Virus record (IMG/VR): IMGVR_UViG_3300049491_001102
Span: 1-64,000 of that record
Direction: 5' to 3' (one strand)
From: a virus
Length of the DNA: 64,000 nucleotides
This document shows, piece by piece, positions 44,107 through 63,221 of this stretch. Numbering within the stretch: position 1 is the stretch's first letter; every line of letters begins with the position of its first letter. The position numbers and the translations under genes are program-made. The notes under the pieces are model-generated. The model searched no databases. It was not told the origin of the DNA and saw only the letters and a program-made list of their open reading frames with translations.

Positions 44107-44763
44107 ATGACCACGACAATTGAACGGTCCGCACCTGTCGCTGGTCAACGTTGGAAGCACTACAAAGGCACGGTATACACGGTCGTGTGCATCGCTCAAT
44201 CTACCGCGGATTTAGAAAAGAAACTCGTCATCTACCGTGATGGTGACAAGTCTTACGCGAGACCAATCGAAGAGTTCATGGAGTATGTAGCCGCAATCCA
44301 GAAACCTAGATTCAAACAAGTTTCAGCCGGTGCCCATATCCCATCAAACGTTGACAACCCGCCAATCTGTCCCTACTGCCAAAATGCTGCGCAACTTGTG
44401 CTCGGTGGCCGCATCTATCCCCACCGGTACGACCTTGCAGAGTTGCAAATGTGGCTTTGTTCCCGATGCAACGCTTGGGTTGGCTGCCACAAACCGAGTG
44501 CACATAGCGACGGCACCGTCCCATTTGGCCGACTTGCCAACGCAGAGCTGCGTGGACTCAAGACGCAAGCCCACGCCGCATTCGATCCGCTTTGGAAAAA
44601 TCATGGCATCACGCGAGATGACGCCTACGCATGGCTTGCCGAAGAGCTCGGGTTAGCCAAAGATCTCACGCACATTGGTATGTTTGACGAAGACACGTGT
44701 CGCCGTGTTATCGAACTCTGTATAACCACGGACCCAAGGAAAATTCGTGCTCTCGCAAAATAA
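44107..44763 (+). CDS. DUF1653 plus DUF3268 zinc-finger fusion
   Basis: WKHYKG..Y...VIYR...ARP..EF; CPYC..CSRC.AWVGCH..GRLAN..AHAAFDPLWK..HIGMF. Confidence 0.85.
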   Translation: MTTTIERSAPVAGQRWKHYKGTVYTVVCIAQSTADLEKKLVIYRDGDKSYARPIEEFMEYVAAIQKPRFKQVSAGAHIPSNVDNPPICPYCQNAAQLVLGGRIYPHRYDLAELQMWLCSRCNAWVGCHKPSAHSDGTVPFGRLANAELRGLKTQAHAAFDPLWKNHGITRDDAYAWLAEELGLAKDLTHIGMFDEDTCRRVIELCITTDPRKIRALAK

Positions 44764-44965: not shown

Positions 44966-45141
44966 ACAACAAGAAGCAATCAGGGATGAACGGCTACGGA
45001 CGAAAAATTTGGATGTGCCGCAAAGGATGCTGTTGCAGCATCCCCCACTGGCGCCAAGGCAAGAAGCAGGGTCGGCGCAAAAGCAAAGAAGCAGTGCGAG
45101 ACCAACTAGTCTCCTCTGATCAAAGCCAAGTCACGGAGTAA
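44962..45141 (+). CDS. 59-aa basic peptide with CRKGCCC (absent from the ORF track)
   Basis: ATGA coupling and AAGGA RBS. Confidence 0.5.
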   Translation: MNNKKQSGMNGYGRKIWMCRKGCCCSIPHWRQGKKQGRRKSKEAVRDQLVSSDQSQVTE

Positions 45142-46166
45142 GGATCTCCCCAAGCAGCTCGGGTGCCACGATGGTTGCTATCCGAACCTAATGCGATCTG
45201 TGTGATCCCTGCCGCGTCCGCAATCCAGCGACGCACGGGTTCCCCGTCTCGCCATTGCTCCCAAACAACCCGCCAAGTGGGTACCTCGACTTGGAAAAGT
45301 TGGGTTGAACTGCGTTCGTCTTCGGCAACATGACGGACGCCAACTTCTTCAATCACATGAAGAGACCATCGTTTTCCCCCACCGGGCGACATTGAGAAGG
45401 CTGCAAACGTATGTTCTCCCGGGATAAGCATTTTTTCGTGAAGTGCTAACCCACGAGATTCAATACCGGGAGCTTGTCGTGTTAGGCCCAGAGTGCATAA
45501 AGCAACTTCTATGCCACTCTCCCAAAAATGAGTCGTTTCTGGAGAAGTCGCAACAACTTCATTTTCCAAACGGTCAAGGAGTGCTAACGCGTTTGTTAGG
45601 GCTTCTGTTGTTTTAGGGTTTGGATCTTTGACACTTGGGTCTTTAATATGTGCTCGGACAACACTCGCAACGTAATCGCGGGCCAACGCTGTAATTGTCG
45701 GATGCATGTCCGTTGCACACCATTGGGACAAGTCATCTTTCGACCCATAGTGGAAGTCGCGACCATCGAAAACGCCGTAGTAAACCTCACCACGCGAAGG
45801 CGCTATCCAAAAGATCGAAGGGCCTTTAACGTGCCAGAGATAATCGGGTCCGCCGCCGACTCGCCCTGCGTCACCAAAAGCATAGTGTCCGCAAGCTAAT
45901 TCCGTGGCGTCACCAAAGATGAGAACACATCCACCACTAGCACCACGAATGTACGATGTCTTTGTGTTGCAGCGCCATAAAACACCACTTTGACCCCGAT
46001 CCTTTGTGATGATCACTCGACCGTCCAAACCAGTGATGAACCCGCAATTGTTGGGGTCAATGTTTGGTCCGCCAGTACCGATTTTGACGAGTGTGCGGCC
46101 GCGACCCGCTTCGCCGAGTTCAAGTGGGAGGGTCAGGGATTGAGTGTTGTTGCTGAGGAGTCTCAC
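45120..46166 (-). CDS. Hypothetical protein
   Basis: 348-aa ORF downstream of the Acb2/Tad1-like gene. Confidence 0.7.
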   Translation of the reverse strand: MRLLSNNTQSLTLPLELGEAGRGRTLVKIGTGGPNIDPNNCGFITGLDGRVIITKDRGQSGVLWRCNTKTSYIRGASGGCVLIFGDATELACGHYAFGDAGRVGGGPDYLWHVKGPSIFWIAPSRGEVYYGVFDGRDFHYGSKDDLSQWCATDMHPTITALARDYVASVVRAHIKDPSVKDPNPKTTEALTNALALLDRLENEVVATSPETTHFWESGIEVALCTLGLTRQAPGIESRGLALHEKMLIPGEHTFAAFSMSPGGGKRWSLHVIEEVGVRHVAEDERSSTQLFQVEVPTWRVVWEQWRDGEPVRRWIADAAGITQIALGSDSNHRGTRAAWGDPYSVTWL

Positions 46167-46232
46167 AACGCCTTAACCGGCCCTTGGTGCTGTATCAACA
46201 CCAGGAATCCGGCGAATGCAGTCCGAGAAGAA

Positions 46233-46523
46233 CTACGGGTATTTGTTAGGATTTCGCGCGACGCTAGCGTTGGCGTGAAAGACAGCGGTCTCCACCCCTC
46301 GAATAGCGAGCGTCAAGTCGGCAGACGCTGGGCAGTTGTTCACAAGGAGAAGCGCGAACGCTTTTGCGGCTTCGCGAATGCGATCATAGACTTCCGCCTG
46401 TGACGGCTTTGGTGGGTGATACGTAAAGACGTCGTTCAGGCTTTGTCCTGCGAGAATTGGAGCCGTGGTGGTGGTCGATGGCTGGCCAAAGACGTTGACG
46501 GTAGTTTCGGTGGTGACGGTCAT
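46233..46523 (-). CDS. Acb2/Tad1-like helical hairpin protein (putative cyclic-nucleotide sponge, anti-defence)
   Basis: FTYHPP..SQ...Y..IR..AK.F......CP.S.D.TLA...VE.AVF.AN.SVAR pattern. Confidence 0.65.
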   Translation of the reverse strand: MTVTTETTVNVFGQPSTTTTAPILAGQSLNDVFTYHPPKPSQAEVYDRIREAAKAFALLLVNNCPASADLTLAIRGVETAVFHANASVARNPNKYP

Positions 46524-46564
46524 GGGAGTCTCTTCTCGGTGTCGTCGAATCCGGCGACTACAGG

Positions 46565-46593
46565 AATATAGGTCAGCAACCTATAGTCCGCAA
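46565..46593 (-). promoter_or_regulatory. Sigma70-type promoter TTGCGG-N17-TATATT containing operator ATAGG-N7-CCTAT
   Basis: Palindrome 46567-46585 fills the spacer and overlaps the -10. Confidence 0.7.
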
Positions 46594-46597
46594 GCCC

Positions 46598-46882
46598 TCA
46601 GCGCGCGGGCCGAAGTTTTTCCGCGAAATCCGCGCCCAACTCTTTGCGCATTCGCTCCAACGTCGGCAAAAAGAAACCTGGGTCAACGTTTAGGGCAGCG
46701 CTGAGTCGCGCCAACATCCGACACGATGCATTCATCGTGCCCCGCTCTAAATCGCTGATATGCGATTGTGGAACGCCGGTGGCCTCCGCCAATTCACGTT
46801 GGCTCAGGTCTGCCAGCGTGCGCGCAGCAGTGAGCTTGCGGCCGATTAGAACTGCGAGAGGATCGGGGTCGCGCGAAGGCAC
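46598..46882 (-). CDS. XRE family HTH repressor
   Basis: LSQRELAEATGVPQSHISDLERG. Confidence 0.9.
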   Translation of the reverse strand: MPSRDPDPLAVLIGRKLTAARTLADLSQRELAEATGVPQSHISDLERGTMNASCRMLARLSAALNVDPGFFLPTLERMRKELGADFAEKLRPAR

Positions 46883-46888
46883 ACCATA

Positions 46889-46909
46889 TAATAGGGCATC
46901 AACCTATTA
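46889..46909. promoter_or_regulatory. Second ATAGG-N7-CCTAT operator, upstream of the XRE gene
   Basis: TAATAGG-GCATCAA-CCTATTA overlapping a TATTAT -10. Confidence 0.7.
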
Positions 46910-46911
46910 GG

Positions 46912-47106
46912 TCAGCGTGCCGCGGGGAAAATTCGAAAGCTCGCGTCGGTGCCGATTGCTTGTTGGCGCAGTTCGGCGACCCGGCGCAAGGCTTCGTCCT
47001 CATCTTCGAATGTGCTGGCGTCGAGCGTTTCAAAAGCAGGGCGCCAGCTTGCTGTCCGCCCACCCCAGGTGCCATGCACCTGTAGCAGGTAGACGACGTC
47101 GTTCAC
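46912..47106 (-). CDS. Hypothetical protein
   Basis: GTGA-coupled ORF. Confidence 0.5.
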   Translation of the reverse strand: MNDVVYLLQVHGTWGGRTASWRPAFETLDASTFEDEDEALRRVAELRQQAIGTDASFRIFPAAR

Positions 47107-47336
47107 GCTTGGTCCTTGTGACCTTGACCCGGCGGGAGCATCACCGCCTTCGCGGCGTCGGAAAGCGAGATGCCTCCGATCGCGGTAGCGGCCAAGATCG
47201 TCACTTGCTCGGCAAGCTTTTCAGCTACGCCATCTTCAAGTCCAAGTCCTAGACGGACAGCAATTAAGCTGATGCCACTTCCGACGAGAACAACGAAGCG
47301 TTTGCTTTTGAGAAGGTCAACAATTGCTTGGATCAT
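47103..47336 (-). CDS. Holin-like membrane protein
   Basis: 77 aa, KSKRF followed by two hydrophobic helices. Confidence 0.6.
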   Translation of the reverse strand: MIQAIVDLLKSKRFVVLVGSGISLIAVRLGLGLEDGVAEKLAEQVTILAATAIGGISLSDAAKAVMLPPGQGHKDQA

Positions 47337-47923
47337 TTTCTGGACTTTACGAGATCATCTAGGAAGATCTCAGCTTTGATGTGTTCAGCATTCTTTTCTG
47401 GATAAGGGCGACTCTTGTTCCTACTCCAGGTAACGATGCGATGCTGGTATTCATCGTCAAATTTACTGACAGCCGCTCTAGCCTGTTGAATCTGCTGCTG
47501 GTGCTTATCCAGTTCAACTAACATAGTTACGCTCTGTTGAAGCGCATTTATGTTTTTACCGTTGGTATTAAGCACGTCAATGATTGGTTGCAGCTTAGCG
47601 TCGAGCTTTTCTTCTGTAACGATAGCCTGACTCCACAGAACAAAAGCACCTCCCAATGAAAATGCTAACGCGATCAGCGATAGTATGTTCTTTGGATTAA
47701 GCATAGCTTTTAGCCATGATTCAGGTTTAGACGCTTTTTTGCGCTCTTGGTCGAATACTTCGCCGACCATCGTTGTTATCTTGGGCATCATGTTGTCCAC
47801 GATAAACCCAAGCTGCGCACGAACGCGTGCGTCATCGTTGTCTGTACTAGGTTCTTGTTGAGGTACAGGCATGGTGATCACCCGAAATCGCTTATTTTCT
47901 CCGCGAATCATTGGCATCCCCAC
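47333..47923 (-). CDS. Single-TM coiled-coil protein (lysis-associated candidate)
   Basis: ILSLIALAFSLGGAFVLW TM; coupled to the holin-like gene. Confidence 0.55.
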   Translation of the reverse strand: MGMPMIRGENKRFRVITMPVPQQEPSTDNDDARVRAQLGFIVDNMMPKITTMVGEVFDQERKKASKPESWLKAMLNPKNILSLIALAFSLGGAFVLWSQAIVTEEKLDAKLQPIIDVLNTNGKNINALQQSVTMLVELDKHQQQIQQARAAVSKFDDEYQHRIVTWSRNKSRPYPEKNAEHIKAEIFLDDLVKSRK

Positions 47924-56934: not shown

Positions 56935-59900
56935 CTATGTGATCCTTAGACTTCCGTAGGCTTCAATCTCAAGACCAGCCCATACTGTGTCTGAACCGAT
57001 TGTCTCGACGCTTATAATGTCACCAGCGACAAGAGGTGTTGTTACAAGGTTTGCAGTGATAGTTGTGTTGCCCGAAGTTATAATCGGCAACGAACCGCTG
57101 ATGATTGAAGTTCCATTGGCTTTGATGTCAATGGTCAAGTTTGCGCCAGCAGCCGTGTTCAATCGTGCGCGCATGGTCGCCGGGACCCAGTTCGTCACCG
57201 CTGGGGCGATCGTTTGGCGTGGCGCAGCCGATACCCCGGCACCCGAGTTGTAGTTTGCGGGAACCGAGAAGCAAAAAGTCCCGGGGATGCCTTTGTAAGC
57301 AAGTGCCGTAGCACCAGCGTTCACAAACGGCGCCATACCAGCGCTTCCAGCCTTCGAACTAGGAACGTCCGAAAGCTGGTTAAACGTGCGGATCCAATTC
57401 GATGGTGTTGCCCGCCAGCGCGACGATGCAATGTCGTAGAGCAGGATAACTGCCTCGTTTGGTGCGACGGCCAAATCCTGGCTGTTCGGGCAGAGAATCC
57501 GGTTGATCCCCGACGACGTGACTTCATTCGCGAGTGTAATGATCGATGAACCAACGTTGATGAAGAGTTTGAGGATTGTTCCCGCGGTCGAAGACAGCGC
57601 GCCAAATCCTGTGATGGTTTGGGCCCCCGTGGCTGCTTGGCGGATCACATCCGCAATCGACCAATCCGTGGGTGTGTAGTTATCCGCTTGAGCAGCAAGT
57701 GCCGTGGGTGTGATCGTGTATTGGCCTTGTCCGGCGATTCGATTCCCGCCTAACGCCAACGTGCCCGTCATTGTTCGCGACCCGTCGAGTGGCAACAAGG
57801 CGATGCCACTAATCGACAAAATATTTGATGCTAGCGATTCCCCAATTCCATTGGTCCCGAGAATCTTAGCAAACGGAAGATCGAATCCGTTCTTAGCAAG
57901 GGCAATACCGGTCCCGGAAGCACCGGCATTCGAAGTCGTGTTGACCTCCCCCATCAAGGGGAATGCACGCCACTTCGTCGACGTTGAGTCATAGGATAAC
58001 AACACCGCTCCGCCGGGCCCGACAACAAGATCTGTTCCTCCGGGACATAAGACTTGATTGGCAGTCGCTGACCCACCATTATTGTTGTTGATCGTGAACG
58101 AATCACTCGCATCGGTATTGATGAGGATCTTCCGTGTCGTCAGCAGTCCCGTTGCCAAAAAACCGGTAAACGCTTGGCTTCCCGTGAAGCTAAACCGAAT
58201 AATGTCAGCCTTGTCGAAGTCGGTAGCCGTGTAGTCGTGCTGCGTTGCCGTTATTGTCGCTGGCGATATGAGGTTGTAACCAAGTCTCTTCAACGCGAAC
58301 GCGCCCATGTCCAACTCTGCCGTCATGGCGCGGGAGCCATCACGTGGCAGTAGTGCAGTTGCGTCGAGATTGACTAGCGTGTTCGCAGGAAAACTCCCCG
58401 GGTTGGCAATCGTCAAGCCGCCAAGACCCGCAAGTGTGCGCAGCTCAAAGTCAACGCCTGTCTTTTGGTGGTACAGCCCCACACCAGCGCCGACGTTGCT
58501 CATTGTATTGAACTCGCCAGCCGCCCCGGCACCACCGCCCGCAAGTTGCGATCCAAATTTACCCGCAGGGTAAAACTCCGCTTGGGCCGTGTTGTTCAAC
58601 GCTGTTGCGTTGCCGATAAGGACGAGGCGTGCGCAAAGGACTGCGCCACTTAAAATAGTTGGTACTGCAAACGTATCAGCAGCAATGCCCGCGATGGCAG
58701 CCGCCTTAGTGGTGTAGATCTTCTGACCATAGACCACGCGATACTCCGGGTTGATGCCCCCAGGTACCAAATAAATCCATTGGGTCGTCCATTCCGCTGC
58801 CGCAACAGATTGCAGAGTTCCCGACCCGTTGTCCCACGACCCCGGTGCAATCGAAGTCGCTGCTGCCGTGATGGTGTAGCCCGAGGGAGAACTGGGATTC
58901 CGGTAGACGTAGCGGAACGACGCTGCCGTGGCGGATGCGTCCGTGGTGATCGAAGGATATTCGCGCGCGGTCGAGTAGTTGGCACCCGCCAGCCAACTGG
59001 AACCTGCGGTTTTGTTCAACTGCAGGTTGGCACCATTCGCCGACCAAACATTTCCGCTTAGATTTACAGGACCAAAAATCTCGAAGAATGACGCAAGGTC
59101 AAATCCTTTATTGTAGGCAAGCTGCGTTACCGGTGTGATGTTGTCAATCGACGTATTATTTACGTGACTGATCTTCGCCAACGGCACAATAACGCGTCGT
59201 TGTGCTAAAGTGAACGGTGTCGCTTGTTGCACTATAGATGAGGCTGTGTCTATCCCAATCCATGTTTGTGCATTCGTTGCCAATCCACTAAGCGTTTGTG
59301 AATTGGCCATCCCCCAAGAAATCGGCTGAATAGACGGAGGATTAAGCGTGTGGTCTACGATTTGACCAAAACCGGCAGACACGTCGAAACGTGACGTGAT
59401 AGCGTCAATAGTGACAACTCCACCCGAAATAAGTCCTGTATCTTGGATGACTTGTACATCAAATGGTGAGGATGCTAGCATCAGCATCCACGTATCAATG
59501 GATTTGATGTAACGAAAACGAATTGTACTGTTACGCCTAATAAACTCGGGCCGGTAATTGAAGTTTATAGAAGACGAGAATGTGATGTCAGTGATTTGAC
59601 CTGCTGACTCAATTTCGCACTCGTCACCGTCTTGAAGGCTCGCGCTTACGCTTGGTAAGTTTATTGTGAACGTGGAAATAGACCCGTCATTTGTATTAAC
59701 GACGCGTCCTCCCCTTGGTGATGGAAATGTGTAGCTACCAGCATTAGTAAAAAAAACGTATTCTTGAACGGACCAAAGTGTCCGATACGTTCCGCCGTCA
59801 TTTAACATCAGTTGATTCATATCGGTTGCCCAGTAACGGGCACCATCAATTGATGCGGCTGGAATACTCGCCAGCAAACCGGATGTCAGAAGCTGACCAT

Positions 59901-61668
59901 TGTATTGGCGCCAGTCCGTACCATCCGTAACTTCACCTTGGAGGGTGGACGTGTTGAAATACGTCGACCCAATCGGCAACGAGTTAGCTGCAGGTCGTGC
60001 ACCCGTTGTTCCAAACAGTGGCGTGTATGCGAAAATCTTCCAACCGGTGTTAACCGTGTTGGTTGTTTTCACATAGACCATCAAACGCTCGTTCGCCGCC
60101 GCGTAGTCAAGGCACAAGGACCCCTTGTCCGCTGCGAGCACACCTTCTGGGGTGCCATTGTTGGAGTAGAAGCGCACGTTCCCCGACGTGCCAATCTTCA
60201 ACCCACCATTTTGAGCGATCATCGTCGCCCATTGGTCAGACGACGTTGCTTTGGCCGAAAAGACATCAGTAGCGCCAAAAGCTACGCGGAACAGATCAGC
60301 GGAGAACTCAATCAACTGGTCCGAAATTTCCCATGCATCGGTGGTCGCCAATGTGGCAGCCGGCTGCGTGGATTTTATGGTCAGGAGTTGCGTTGCGTGC
60401 ACCGCTTTGGTGACATGGTTCGCAAACGAGCAACCGATGAGCTTCAACGCTTCCGACTTTGCACACCAAATCCCGTAGCTGTTCGCATCGAACACCACGG
60501 TGTCGCAGGTCAAGTTCATCAACGAGTCGAGAACATCGTTGTCCGTAAAAATACCGCGGGAGTTCCCCGCGATGCGGCAATTCGAAACGCGGTTAGCGAG
60601 TGAAGCTACAGCCGCAAACGTGATGCGCTGGAACTGAACACCACCGCCGGTGAGCGCACCAACGTTTCCGTTGTTCAGGATTTCCGAGTCGAGAAGTTCA
60701 ATGTTGTGCGAGTCGTTGAAGATCAAGCCTGTAGGGAAATCTGAAACTTTGCACGATTGAAACGAGGTCAACGTGTTGTCGAGCGATGGTGACCCCGCAA
60801 TCCTTCCCCGGTACCCCACTGCGGTGCCGGTGTTTTGGCCCCCACCTTTGAGTGCGAGCGCACGGAAATATGTGCCCGCCATGGTGGTGCTGGGCGACAC
60901 ATAGGAGAGAAAGTCCCCCGTGGTCTTTGCGTACCGCAAGATCGACACGGCCGAGCCGGCGCCAACAAAGGCTTCGGTACCCGACAATGTGAGCTCGTTC
61001 GAATACCACTCACCCGGTGGAATGAAGATCGGCAAGCCAGTCGAATTGCTCGCCGCGATTGCGGCTTGAATGGCAATCGTGTTGGCTGTGGCATAGCTGC
61101 CAGACCCTGCCACAGCGCCGAACTTGCGAATGTCGATGATGACCGCGTTGGCGCCACCGACCGCCATGACAAGCTCGTGCCACGACCGAAACCAACCCGT
61201 GTAATCGTAAGTTCCGATTGTTCCGGGGCTCCCGGCGACGAATTCATTATCTTCTGATGCTGCAACAAAAGCAGGACCTGAATTGATAAGAGAGGCTAAA
61301 GGATCAGCCACCTCGTTAAATGCCGGTATGGCTAATCCTGCCGGTGTGCGAACACGGAATAGTCTGGTCGTTACCTCGGACTCATCAGGCAATCCAACAT
61401 TTGTAACGAGACGAATACGGTACGTTCCGGGGCATCCGGCGGTCGGTGTAAACGTCCATACTAATGGATTTCCTGTTACTGCAAGAGTTGGAACAGCGGT
61501 TGTGTCACCGATAGGAATCCAAAGCAAAGAAAACGTTGCAGTGGTTGCGCCAGGATTTGTTGCGGTCAAAGTGACCACAGCACCAGTAGCCAGACCATCA
61601 GATCGCGTCCGGCCGTTTGTTCCGGCAGGAAGGCCAACCTGGTCAATTCGCATTTCCGCAACTGCCAT
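56935..61668 (-). CDS. Tail fibre/spike with pectate-lyase-like beta-helix (depolymerase candidate)
   Basis: DIRKFGA..NTIAIQAAI..IFIPPG beta-helix cap; GTTGARP; duplicated C-terminal modules. Confidence 0.8.
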   Translation of the reverse strand: MAVAEMRIDQVGLPAGTNGRTRSDGLATGAVVTLTATNPGATTATFSLLWIPIGDTTAVPTLAVTGNPLVWTFTPTAGCPGTYRIRLVTNVGLPDESEVTTRLFRVRTPAGLAIPAFNEVADPLASLINSGPAFVAASEDNEFVAGSPGTIGTYDYTGWFRSWHELVMAVGGANAVIIDIRKFGAVAGSGSYATANTIAIQAAIAASNSTGLPIFIPPGEWYSNELTLSGTEAFVGAGSAVSILRYAKTTGDFLSYVSPSTTMAGTYFRALALKGGGQNTGTAVGYRGRIAGSPSLDNTLTSFQSCKVSDFPTGLIFNDSHNIELLDSEILNNGNVGALTGGGVQFQRITFAAVASLANRVSNCRIAGNSRGIFTDNDVLDSLMNLTCDTVVFDANSYGIWCAKSEALKLIGCSFANHVTKAVHATQLLTIKSTQPAATLATTDAWEISDQLIEFSADLFRVAFGATDVFSAKATSSDQWATMIAQNGGLKIGTSGNVRFYSNNGTPEGVLAADKGSLCLDYAAANERLMVYVKTTNTVNTGWKIFAYTPLFGTTGARPAANSLPIGSTYFNTSTLQGEVTDGTDWRQYNGQLLTSGLLASIPAASIDGARYWATDMNQLMLNDGGTYRTLWSVQEYVFFTNAGSYTFPSPRGGRVVNTNDGSISTFTINLPSVSASLQDGDECEIESAGQITDITFSSSINFNYRPEFIRRNSTIRFRYIKSIDTWMLMLASSPFDVQVIQDTGLISGGVVTIDAITSRFDVSAGFGQIVDHTLNPPSIQPISWGMANSQTLSGLATNAQTWIGIDTASSIVQQATPFTLAQRRVIVPLAKISHVNNTSIDNITPVTQLAYNKGFDLASFFEIFGPVNLSGNVWSANGANLQLNKTAGSSWLAGANYSTAREYPSITTDASATAASFRYVYRNPSSPSGYTITAAATSIAPGSWDNGSGTLQSVAAAEWTTQWIYLVPGGINPEYRVVYGQKIYTTKAAAIAGIAADTFAVPTILSGAVLCARLVLIGNATALNNTAQAEFYPAGKFGSQLAGGGAGAAGEFNTMSNVGAGVGLYHQKTGVDFELRTLAGLGGLTIANPGSFPANTLVNLDATALLPRDGSRAMTAELDMGAFALKRLGYNLISPATITATQHDYTATDFDKADIIRFSFTGSQAFTGFLATGLLTTRKILINTDASDSFTINNNNGGSATANQVLCPGGTDLVVGPGGAVLLSYDSTSTKWRAFPLMGEVNTTSNAGASGTGIALAKNGFDLPFAKILGTNGIGESLASNILSISGIALLPLDGSRTMTGTLALGGNRIAGQGQYTITPTALAAQADNYTPTDWSIADVIRQAATGAQTITGFGALSSTAGTILKLFINVGSSIITLANEVTSSGINRILCPNSQDLAVAPNEAVILLYDIASSRWRATPSNWIRTFNQLSDVPSSKAGSAGMAPFVNAGATALAYKGIPGTFCFSVPANYNSGAGVSAAPRQTIAPAVTNWVPATMRARLNTAAGANLTIDIKANGTSIISGSLPIITSGNTTITANLVTTPLVAGDIISVETIGSDTVWAGLEIEAYGSLRIT

Positions 61669-61703: not shown

Positions 61704-63221
61704 CTACATCGGAAGACCTGTTTCACCATCCGTCAACGTTACAGTGCCCAAAACAGGGAACTCAAAGAGTTGCAACTGCAAATCTTCGTGTTCTCCATTC
61801 AGCATGTAATGATGAGGCGAGTCGCCGATTTTGAGCACACCAGTTGATGACTTGATGATATCAGCGATCAACGGGCCTAATAGTGGTATCTCCAAAGACG
61901 GACTTCCATCTGATTTTAAGTCCGCAAAGCCAAACCCAATCTTTGTGTTTGGAGTCCCATCCGGGTTTTTTAATGCGAAGTACGAGTCAAGTGTAGTCCG
62001 AATGGCGTTGCCAACGATAGACGCGATTGTTCCGTATCGACGGAATATCGTGGCATCCACGTTAACTATCTTGTAGACGGGGTCTTCAACGCTTAGCCGA
62101 AATGTGATGGTATGCTTCTTCGTAACAGATACAGCCGTGTAAACAGCATCTTTTAGCGTTTGAGTTGGCAGTCCACCACCATCGGGTACGATGTATAAAA
62201 ACCCGCGATTCTCCGCAACCCCAGGCGCCTGGTCGGACGTCAGCATCAATGCGCGAGCAACCCCAGGAACAAGCTCAGCCTCGATCTCATAATCCTCGCG
62301 CGCGACTACCCGATCGGAAACCCGCAAAGACCTGGGCGCTTGCTCCTTGATTTGCGCCACGGACATGCGGTCTTCGCCGCCGCTCGCTTGCAGTGGATTG
62401 TTAACGCTGACCTGAACGGGGCTCCCCAGCACGTCGGTGAACGTGCCGGGGATGACTTTGATGGTGTTGGCGTCCACGTTCCCCGCCGCACCGCCGCCAA
62501 TCTTGTACCGAGCCACGATGGTGCCCGCAGGAATTTGCCCATTAACGCCATCGCCGAATACAACGCGTGCACGATCGTTTTGGTCCACCACGATGTAGAA
62601 ATCCCGATCGATCGCCGACGAATCCAAGAGGTTGTCCACCTCGGTATATGCGCCGTTGGCTGCCGTGAGGATGATCGAGCCGTCAAGGTAGGGGATCCCC
62701 GCTAGGAAGAATGACTGGTCCGCTAAATTGCTGGAAACGAACGCTTCGTCGTAGTTGGTGGAGTTCTCGACATCCACCATGGCTTGAGGCGGATTAGTGC
62801 CGCCGGGGATCGTCACGTCCGTCAAAATCTGAAACGTCACTGGGTCGGTGACGTCCTGCGTGCGCACAACTTGCTCTGCGGGAATGATGACGTCGTTAAC
62901 TGGAACATCCGCGAGCGTGAGTGTGACCGTTGCTGAAGCTGCGGCCGCACCAGGTACAGAGAAACCAAGCATCTTTGCTAATGCAAGAACGTTGGATCTC
63001 ATTCTCGCATCTGTAAGGCGCGACTCAGCAGCTTGATTATCCATGTAGAAGGATAAAATATCCCCTACGTAGCTCATCAAGCCTTTCAGGATGTTACCGA
63101 AATTGGCAACTGTGTCATTGGACCAATCTGGGAACACACTCTGCGTCAGCAAAGTTAGCCGTGCATAAATGGAGTCATAATCCTTGTCAGTGTAATCAAG
63201 GTTCTGGGGTAAAACTGTCAT
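61704..63221 (-). CDS. Baseplate J / wedge protein
   Basis: DYTDKDY, ALAKMLG, FGDGVNG.IP, GG..GNV, GGED, RVVAREDYE. Confidence 0.92.
   Translation of the reverse strand: MTVLPQNLDYTDKDYDSIYARLTLLTQSVFPDWSNDTVANFGNILKGLMSYVGDILSFYMDNQAAESRLTDARMRSNVLALAKMLGFSVPGAAAASATVTLTLADVPVNDVIIPAEQVVRTQDVTDPVTFQILTDVTIPGGTNPPQAMVDVENSTNYDEAFVSSNLADQSFFLAGIPYLDGSIILTAANGAYTEVDNLLDSSAIDRDFYIVVDQNDRARVVFGDGVNGQIPAGTIVARYKIGGGAAGNVDANTIKVIPGTFTDVLGSPVQVSVNNPLQASGGEDRMSVAQIKEQAPRSLRVSDRVVAREDYEIEAELVPGVARALMLTSDQAPGVAENRGFLYIVPDGGGLPTQTLKDAVYTAVSVTKKHTITFRLSVEDPVYKIVNVDATIFRRYGTIASIVGNAIRTTLDSYFALKNPDGTPNTKIGFGFADLKSDGSPSLEIPLLGPLIADIIKSSTGVLKIGDSPHHYMLNGEHEDLQLQLFEFPVLGTVTLTDGETGLPM

Follow-up and report, generated by a model that had tools for sequence, protein, structure and literature searches.

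What governs the expression of a phage-borne nucleotide sponge, and what might the larger gene that travels with it be for? The question is raised by a three-gene cassette on the minus strand of IMG/VR virus record IMGVR_UViG_3300049491_001102 (111,463 bp, rated complete by CheckV), of which bases 1-64000 make up the window analysed here; all coordinates are those of the window. The cassette comprises a gene for a small XRE-family helix-turn-helix (HTH) regulator, a gene for a 96-amino-acid (aa) homologue of the Acb2-family sponges, and an open reading frame (ORF) of 348 aa, hereafter ORF348. An original prediction, made from the sequence alone, had taken these genes for a putative anti-defence cassette under operator control. 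The reading that we favour, and to which we attach a probability of roughly 0.6, is of an operon that is autorepressed by its XRE protein and in which an Acb2-family sponge is co-transcribed with ORF348. The results concern gene identities, family membership, the number and position of operators, and operon layout. In order of transcription the principal features are:

46888..46915, minus strand: promoter P1 of the XRE gene, CTGACC (46915-46910)-N16-TATTAT (46893-46888), called by a consensus scan with 9/12 matches
46891..46907, no strand assigned: operator O1, which on the minus strand reads ATAGGTTGATGCCCTAT and lies in the spacer and -10 of P1
46598..46882, minus strand: XRE-family HTH protein, 94 aa, putative autorepressor (Pfam HTH_3, 5.4e-14)
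46565..46593, minus strand: promoter P2 of the sponge gene, TTGCGG (46593-46588)-N17-TATATT (46570-46565), read directly
46568..46584, no strand assigned: operator O2, which reads ATAGGTTGCTGACCTAT and lies in the spacer and -10 of P2, in the same register to the -10 as O1
46233..46523, minus strand: Acb2-family sponge homologue, 96 aa (PF24729), with a core at residues 33-90 and a low-confidence N-terminus (residues 1-32)
45120..46166, minus strand: ORF348, 348 aa, with an N-domain (1-141), a helical linker (143-225) and a C-domain (226-340)

The identity of the 96-aa product is the firmest point of departure. It matches Pfam family PF24729 (Acb2_Tad1_hairpin) with a score of 53.2 bits (E 3.5e-14; cut-off 27), over model positions 1-58 of 58; a genome search with the same family returned it at 53.8 bits, and PHROG 1454 matches it as well. 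Relatives were found at 20 IMG/VR loci and in 97 GenBank phage records, the hosts of these phages including Gordonia, Paenibacillus, Bacillus and Brevibacillus; one of the phages is a cyanophage. Searching the sequences of the PDB by phmmer with the single 96-aa sequence gave chance matches alone. A profile of the clade (alignment A1) placed Acb2_43 (9ptq) and chains of Tad1 in the top seven positions, six of them at E ~0.004 and one at 0.21. An AlphaFold2 (AF2) model bears out the two-helix pattern that the original prediction had read from the letters: it is a helical hairpin of helices 40-63 and 68-90, with a block-mean predicted local distance difference test score (pLDDT) of 89-97 over residues 41-90, falling to 51-65 over residues 1-32, where only two short strands are modelled.

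In GenBank most of these relatives are labelled hypothetical or phosphomannomutase, and some in cultured phages stand under ‘tail assembly protein’ (examples are found in Paenibacillus phages Heath, Vegas and Hayley, and in Brevibacillus phage Jenst). The phosphomannomutase and tail assembly labels on Acb2 homologues look like annotation errors.

Many members of the family have been catalogued, which allows the protein to be placed beside homologues of measured activity. Among the 4,204 Acb2 homologues listed by Hadary et al. 2025 (doi 10.1101/2025.08.24.671296) are proteins of the FTYHPP type, several of them tested. The 96-aa protein is 44.1% identical to Acb2_44 over 68 aa (E 2e-17) and 45.2% identical to Acb2_27 over 62 aa (E 5e-16). 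In Table S2 of that study (doi 10.1101/2025.08.24.671296) Acb2_44 blocked both the cyclic GMP-AMP (cGAMP) and the cyclic UMP-AMP (cUA) forms of CBASS (cyclic-oligonucleotide-based antiphage signalling system), Acb2_27 blocked type I Thoeris and cUA CBASS, and Acb2_4 blocked cGAMP CBASS; Acb2_17, Acb2_37 and Acb2_38, which belong to the same clade, blocked none of seven systems.

All eight positions that are invariant in the clade alignment (F33, Y35, H36, P38, R50, P65, A73 and N85) are kept. A phenylalanine and histidine in place of the usual methionine and tryptophan, remarked on in the original prediction, are indeed present: the protein has F82-H83 where nine of 13 aligned relatives have M-W. 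The pair is within the range of active homologues, given that phenylalanine occupies the first position in the active Acb2_44 and Acb2_43, and that histidine occupies the second in the active Acb2_35 (Acb2_27 has threonine). A helix-2 motif, AD..(S/T).AIR, is common to the 96-aa protein, Acb2_27 and the relatives at loci L018 and L022. Acb2_43 contacts 3' cyclic ADP-ribose (3'cADPR) through T4, H5, L6, V7, K19 and K55; a gapless alignment sets F33, H36 and R50 on its F2, H5 and K19, so that a basic residue is kept at K19, and sets P37 and P38 on L6 and V7.

On the evidence of sequence, then, the 96-aa product is a homologue of the Acb2-family sponges, one more member of a known family and of a clade from which proteins have been tested before. 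By analogy it would most likely assemble like other Acb2 proteins; its targets would most likely be CBASS signals, with the 3'cADPR of type I Thoeris a possible further one. An ‘Acb2/Tad1-like’ sponge had been proposed, and it is the Acb2 half of the proposal that holds, through the above-cut-off match to PF24729 and the 44-45% identity to active homologues. We rejected a Tad1 identity: the protein has no N-terminal beta domain of the Tad1 kind, and its profile match to Tad1 is confined to the hairpin segment.

How is the sponge gene controlled? A 17-bp palindrome, ATAGGTTG(A/C)TG(C/A)CCTAT, occurs exactly twice in the 111,463-bp record, as O1 and O2. Both copies have perfect 5-bp arms and a 7-bp spacer, and they are identical at 15 of 17 positions, the non-palindromic spacer included. 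The two palindromes had been predicted at 46891-46907 and 46568-46584, the latter within TTGCGG-N17-TATATT; direct reading of the sequence finds both where they had been placed, with the hexamers of the second promoter at 46593-46588 and 46570-46565. The 3' arm of each operator, CCTAT, extends into the -10 hexamer. P1 and P2 are both sigma-70-like, the latter beginning 4 nt past the XRE stop codon and escaping the promoter scan because it matches the consensus less well than P1. The P1-O1 and P2-O2 regions can be aligned over ~30 nt, including the -35 region, and for this reason look like duplicates of one another.

The rarity of the palindrome depends on how strictly it is defined. A loose pattern, ATAGG-N7-CCTAT with at most one mismatch, gives two matches in the window, namely O1 and O2, against a chance expectation of 0.34; two or more matches arose in five of 100 shuffled controls, and a pattern of this looseness is not very rare. 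The specific 17-mer, with up to two mismatches allowed, finds O1 and O2 alone across all 111,463 bp, and its reversed control finds nothing.

The candidate to act at these sites is the product of the first gene. It is the sole match to HTH_3 above cut-off in the whole phage record. Its best PADLOC matches are HTH_VI, CapH (8e-11) and restriction-modification (R-M) control proteins (5e-9); models of the HipB, HigA and RstR types match far below their curated cut-offs, and its neighbours in the library are generic small regulators. The gene has a single possible start, a GTG at 46882, which lies 5 nt past the -10 of P1 and lacks a Shine-Dalgarno sequence; from these two features the XRE mRNA is probably leaderless. 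There is precedent in lambda cI, which is leaderless when transcribed from PRM. A search of the phage record for a tyrosine integrase found none. Because of this, and because no other HTH_3 gene rises above cut-off, the XRE protein is probably a dedicated, local autorepressor resembling the Aca repressors rather than a lysogeny switch. We infer that it binds DNA and represses. An Aca-like autorepression circuit fits all of the sequence evidence: operators within promoter spacers, sites unique in the genome, and a lone clear HTH_3 gene.

Taken together these elements suggest how the operon might work. P1 and P2, as promoters of the host type, would drive XRE, then the sponge, then ORF348. The scan called no terminator-like site between the three genes, the 66-nt gap between sponge and ORF348 included, and transcripts from P1 should therefore read through the whole operon. 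XRE protein made from leaderless mRNA would bind O1 and O2 as a dimer and, since the palindromes cover the promoter spacers and the opening bases of the -10 hexamers, would block RNA polymerase at both promoters, so capping all three products in an Aca-like negative feedback. Meanwhile the 96-aa product would soak up CBASS cyclic nucleotides (of the 3'3'-cGAMP or cUA type), and possibly the 3'cADPR of type I Thoeris, leaving host effectors silent; ORF348 would be co-transcribed with it. The operon would thus be an early one, driven by host RNA polymerase and subject to negative feedback from its own first gene.

What, then, is ORF348? It is a real gene, and its GTG start aligns with the N-termini of 27 relatives. 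HMMER searches over 1.84 billion representatives returned 106 relatives: ~30 span the full length, at 30-37% identity, many others, of ~175 aa, match residues 15-140 only, and some are 600-950 aa long; ten of the longer ones (437-956 aa) contain no Pfam domain. Those full-length relatives that were looked up are nearly all singletons from Logan assemblies. Conserved motifs, rich in glycine and in arginine or lysine, mark both domains: LGExGRGR, YxRG, GDAGR and DxLWHV in the N-domain, GPGGGKR[YW] and KDGE in the C-domain. The AF2 model is a confident one (pLDDT 91.3; predicted template modelling score 0.78). Its N-domain is rich in beta structure and includes a very long hairpin (79-96, 104-122); a helical linker leads from there to a C-domain that forms a beta-meander.

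Known families and folds offer ORF348 little company. It has no family match in Pfam, PHROGs, PADLOC or NCBIfam, and neither ORF348 nor alignment A3 found a match when used as queries in IMG/VR. Foldseek against the PDB returned noise; with VIA-align the highest Z among 48,161 chains was 5.9, in matches to the helical linker or the C-domain only, and in a further structure search it was 5.1. BFVD held nothing at E <=0.001, the best match (4.6e-3) being an uncharacterised rudivirus protein. Nothing convincingly like ORF348 was thus found in the PDB or BFVD; these searches hardly sampled the N-domain, and we claim no new fold. Its motifs were not found in the supplements of doi 10.1101/2025.07.12.664507. 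One lead was tried and rejected: scores of 0.78-0.81 in the ESM Atlas pointed to a trypsin-like protein, but Pfam scans of 53 family members gave no peptidase match at E up to 5, and what would be the serine of GDSG is a near-invariant alanine.

The N-domain also exists as a stand-alone family of ~175 aa, with at least 196 members that are unnamed or labelled hypothetical and that have no Pfam, PHROG or PDB match. Eight of these (L024-L031) are in IMG/VR phages of 29-188 kb, where they lie among small early or accessory genes; among the genes around them are those for an RNase H, a helicase, a group II intron reverse transcriptase and an AntA-like protein, together with a RadC-like gene and a DUF932 gene, apparently both in L028. 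In one phage the N-domain gene (L028:6001-6564) apparently stands between the RadC-like gene and the DUF932 gene, both assigned by eye. RadC and DUF932 often mark the anti-defence islands of plasmid leading regions, which is no more than a hint as to the role of the N-domain family.

Our best guess from these sequences is that ORF348 is a second host-directed counter-defence protein, one that perhaps binds a phosphorylated ligand by way of its conserved glycine, arginine and lysine loops. A bolder proposal can be framed: that ORF348 is the founder of a new family of counter-defence proteins in phages, with two beta-rich domains and no known fold, and that its conserved LGExGRGR, GDAGR and GPGGGKR loops bind either a defence protein or a signal derived from nucleotides. 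The phage would then keep ORF348 and an Acb2 sponge behind a single dedicated repressor in order to have both made early and their levels capped afterwards. We consider this proposal rather unlikely. Were it true, the capped dose of sponge might also limit the triggering of decoy-guard systems such as Panoptes, a system that senses sponges.

The sponge gene itself is bracketed by a short direct repeat, which bears on the history of the operon:

46547..46563, minus strand: left copy of a 17-nt direct repeat, CTG(T/C)A(G/T)TCGCCGGATTC, just past the -10 of P2 (repeat family D10, 15/17 identical)
46205..46221, minus strand: right copy of the same repeat (family D10), 11 nt past the sponge stop codon

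By our estimate ~0.3 such pairs are expected by chance in 2.7 kb, and the pair is only marginally beyond chance; it is the exact flanking position that is notable. Because the repeat brackets the gene so exactly, a cassette consisting of the sponge gene may have entered the leader of ORF348. Pairing between the 5' and 3' untranslated regions of the sponge gene was considered and is not supported: the segment 46160-46565 folds with a z of -1.0, and its complementary 9-mers are unpaired in the minimum-energy structure.

A second repeat, of 22 nt, is found at 46428-46449 and 47095-47116, the copies being identical at 20 of 22 positions (~4e-4 pairs expected in 2.7 kb, again an estimate, and so far beyond chance). 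On the minus strand it reads AGGAC(A/C)AAGC(C/G)TGAACGACGTC. At 47106 it supplies the Shine-Dalgarno sequence, the GTG start and the first codons (M-N-D-V) of a 64-aa ORF upstream of the cassette. Within the sponge gene it is in frame, with a CTG at L29; a start at that codon would give a protein of 68 aa, (M)NDVFTYHPP..., which is the usual size in the clade. This copy could mark an internal start, or it could be a scar that a module swap has left behind.

Several observations weigh against the reading of an autorepressed sponge operon. The layout of XRE, sponge and ORF348 is not conserved: at none of the 20 other Acb2-like loci does an ORF348 relative lie nearby, or an XRE that phmmer can detect, and a PF24729 gene is present in none of the eight phage records that carry the N-domain family of ORF348. 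The earlier suggestion that ORF348 is a new anti-defence protein has nothing but the shared operon in its favour, and amounts to guilt by association. Comparison of structures with Acb2 and Tad1 is compatible with the proposed fold (T4 Vs.4 at Z 6.0, PaMx33 Acb2 at 5.2, CbTad1 at 5.1) but does not discriminate, many unrelated helical hairpins reaching equal Z. For the regulator, no close relative was found in IMG/VR; it is unusual in standing at the head of the operon and in starting from a GTG that no Shine-Dalgarno sequence precedes, and leaderless translation from GUG is inefficient in some hosts. In the sponge, the usual helix-2 sequence SREKS...T.LEE has become SADLT...R.VE, and K55 of Acb2_43, a 3'cADPR contact, is replaced by A86. 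Given the loss of K55 and the altered helix-2 motif, ligand preference is not readable from the sequence. In PaMx33 Acb2, dinucleotides are bound through Y11 and K26 and trinucleotides through R67 and T74.

Other explanations draw on the same facts. It could be that XRE and ORF348 were the original unit, with ORF348 a toxic, exclusion or defence-type cargo directed at competing phages or the host, and that the sponge was inserted later into the ORF348 leader. The 17-nt repeat exactly around the sponge gene, past the -10 of P2 and past the stop codon, is consistent with this, as is the failure of the sponge and ORF348 families to co-occur at the 20 Acb2-like loci and in the eight N-domain phages; so too are the library matches of XRE, which are to regulators of defence and toxin systems (CapH, R-M control, antitoxins of the HipB and HigA types). 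Yet the repeat is marginally beyond chance, the XRE matches are generic HTH similarity and all far below curated cut-offs, PADLOC, Pfam and NCBIfam give no toxin or defence match for ORF348 (and no toxin match for the sponge), and, as no tyrosine integrase was found, there is no sign of the phage living as a prophage, when carrying a defence gene would pay. We regard this history as improbable. We think much the same of a circuit in which XRE is a timing switch of the R-M C-protein kind, activating at low and repressing at high concentration, or activating only, such that expression of the sponge would be delayed rather than damped. Such controller circuits typically have the regulator-first order, the operator-bearing promoter of its own and the weak -35 boxes (CTGACC, TTGCGG) that are found here, and the control-protein models of PADLOC match XRE at 5e-9. 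They also have two adjacent C-boxes where each promoter here has one palindrome, and the overlap of that palindrome with the -10 is a position that normally blocks RNA polymerase.

The remaining doubt concerns the sponge: the 96-aa protein might be a diverged Acb2 fold that does not sequester signals, having decayed or taken another role, and the real product might be the 68-aa form. Its unusual helix-2 residues (SADLT, R75, F82-H83), the low-confidence and threonine-rich N-terminal 28 aa, and the inactivity of Acb2_17, Acb2_37 and Acb2_38 of this clade against all seven systems all lean that way. Against them stand the retention of every one of the eight invariant clade positions, an intact reading frame behind a regulated promoter of its own, and the activity of the closest tested relatives; we judge a non-sequestering protein very unlikely. 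The reading of an XRE-autorepressed operon, with an Acb2-family sponge and ORF348 as its cargo, remains the one that we prefer.

The setting of the operon within the phage is as follows. On the minus strand of the window, genes can be recognised for a baseplate wedge (61704-63221) and for a tail fibre (56935-61668); downstream of the tail genes, as far as 46912, come further large ORFs, along with a few small ones of the membrane or coiled-coil kind. The cassette follows these, and its 3' end at 45120 converges with a plus-strand block that contains genes for an HNH endonuclease, an endolysin, a RuvC-like resolvase and a DUF1653-DUF3268 protein. The 3' end of the tail-gene strand is occupied by the cassette, a small accessory operon; the phage is probably virulent. 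The last-named protein of the convergent block, and its final clear gene (44107-44763, plus strand), is a 218-aa fusion of DUF1653 with the zinc-finger DUF3268 (PHROG 1934). Directly upstream of the cassette, on the minus strand at 46912-47923, are three small ORFs of 64 aa, 77 aa (hydrophobic) and 196 aa, none with a family assignment; the 196-aa ORF has a weak match to Rz-like spanins (E 1.3e-3), and the stop codon of the 64-aa ORF falls inside the -35 of P1.

A literature search turned up no account of a nucleotide sponge whose gene has an Aca-like repressor and twin operators of its own, and on that ground the dedicated regulator with its two operators counts as a new variation on the Aca theme. 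Control of sponge dose matters, since hosts are known to sense sponges by means of decoy nucleotides. ORF348 for its part is a cheap candidate for anti-defence screens: it belongs to a sizeable unnamed family that is phage-borne wherever genomic context could be read (eight loci, in the N-domain-only form), and it has a confident model with nothing alike in the PDB or BFVD.

Comparison with known systems places the cassette between several of them. With other Acb2 sponges (PaMx33 Acb2 and T4 Vs.4; Acb2_44, Acb2_27 and Acb2_4) the 96-aa protein shares PF24729, size class, the two-helix hairpin, the F-T-Y-H-P-P motif, R50 and N85; it differs in 28-30 extra, low-confidence N-terminal residues, in F82-H83 for M-W, in a helix 2 that reads SADLT..AIR, much as in Acb2_27, L018 and L022, rather than SREKS..T.LE, and in being under a repressor of its own. 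Acb2_43 (PDB 9ptq), which blocks Thoeris and binds 3'cADPR, is the best PDB match of the clade profile, but K55 is not kept and overall identity is low enough for blastp to find no match. The likeness to Tad1 (CbTad1, PDB 7uav and 8kbf) is one of the C-terminal hairpin motif, the profile matching the SRE...ALT..EEA.MW segment at E 0.004; Tad1 is a protein of ~100-150 aa with an N-terminal beta domain before the hairpin, where the 96-aa protein has a short low-confidence N-terminus.

As to the regulator, small XRE-type HTH proteins also include the C-proteins of R-M systems and the CapH of CBASS. These regulate host defence genes, whereas the XRE protein here belongs to a phage and to counter-defence, and C-boxes come as adjacent pairs. 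C-proteins are encoded by the first gene of their unit and are autoregulated through palindromes; the gene order of the cassette, with the regulator first and behind its own promoter, is closer to theirs than to that of typical acr-aca operons. To the Aca repressors (Aca1, Aca2) the likeness is one of layout: a small HTH protein encoded within an anti-defence operon, inverted repeats over the promoter, and an expectation of feedback. In the present case the cargo is an Acb2-type sponge and ORF348 with no anti-CRISPR, the regulator comes first, and a second, separate operator-promoter follows it. Because that cargo is not an anti-CRISPR, the circuit is Aca-like in its logic and not Aca by definition.

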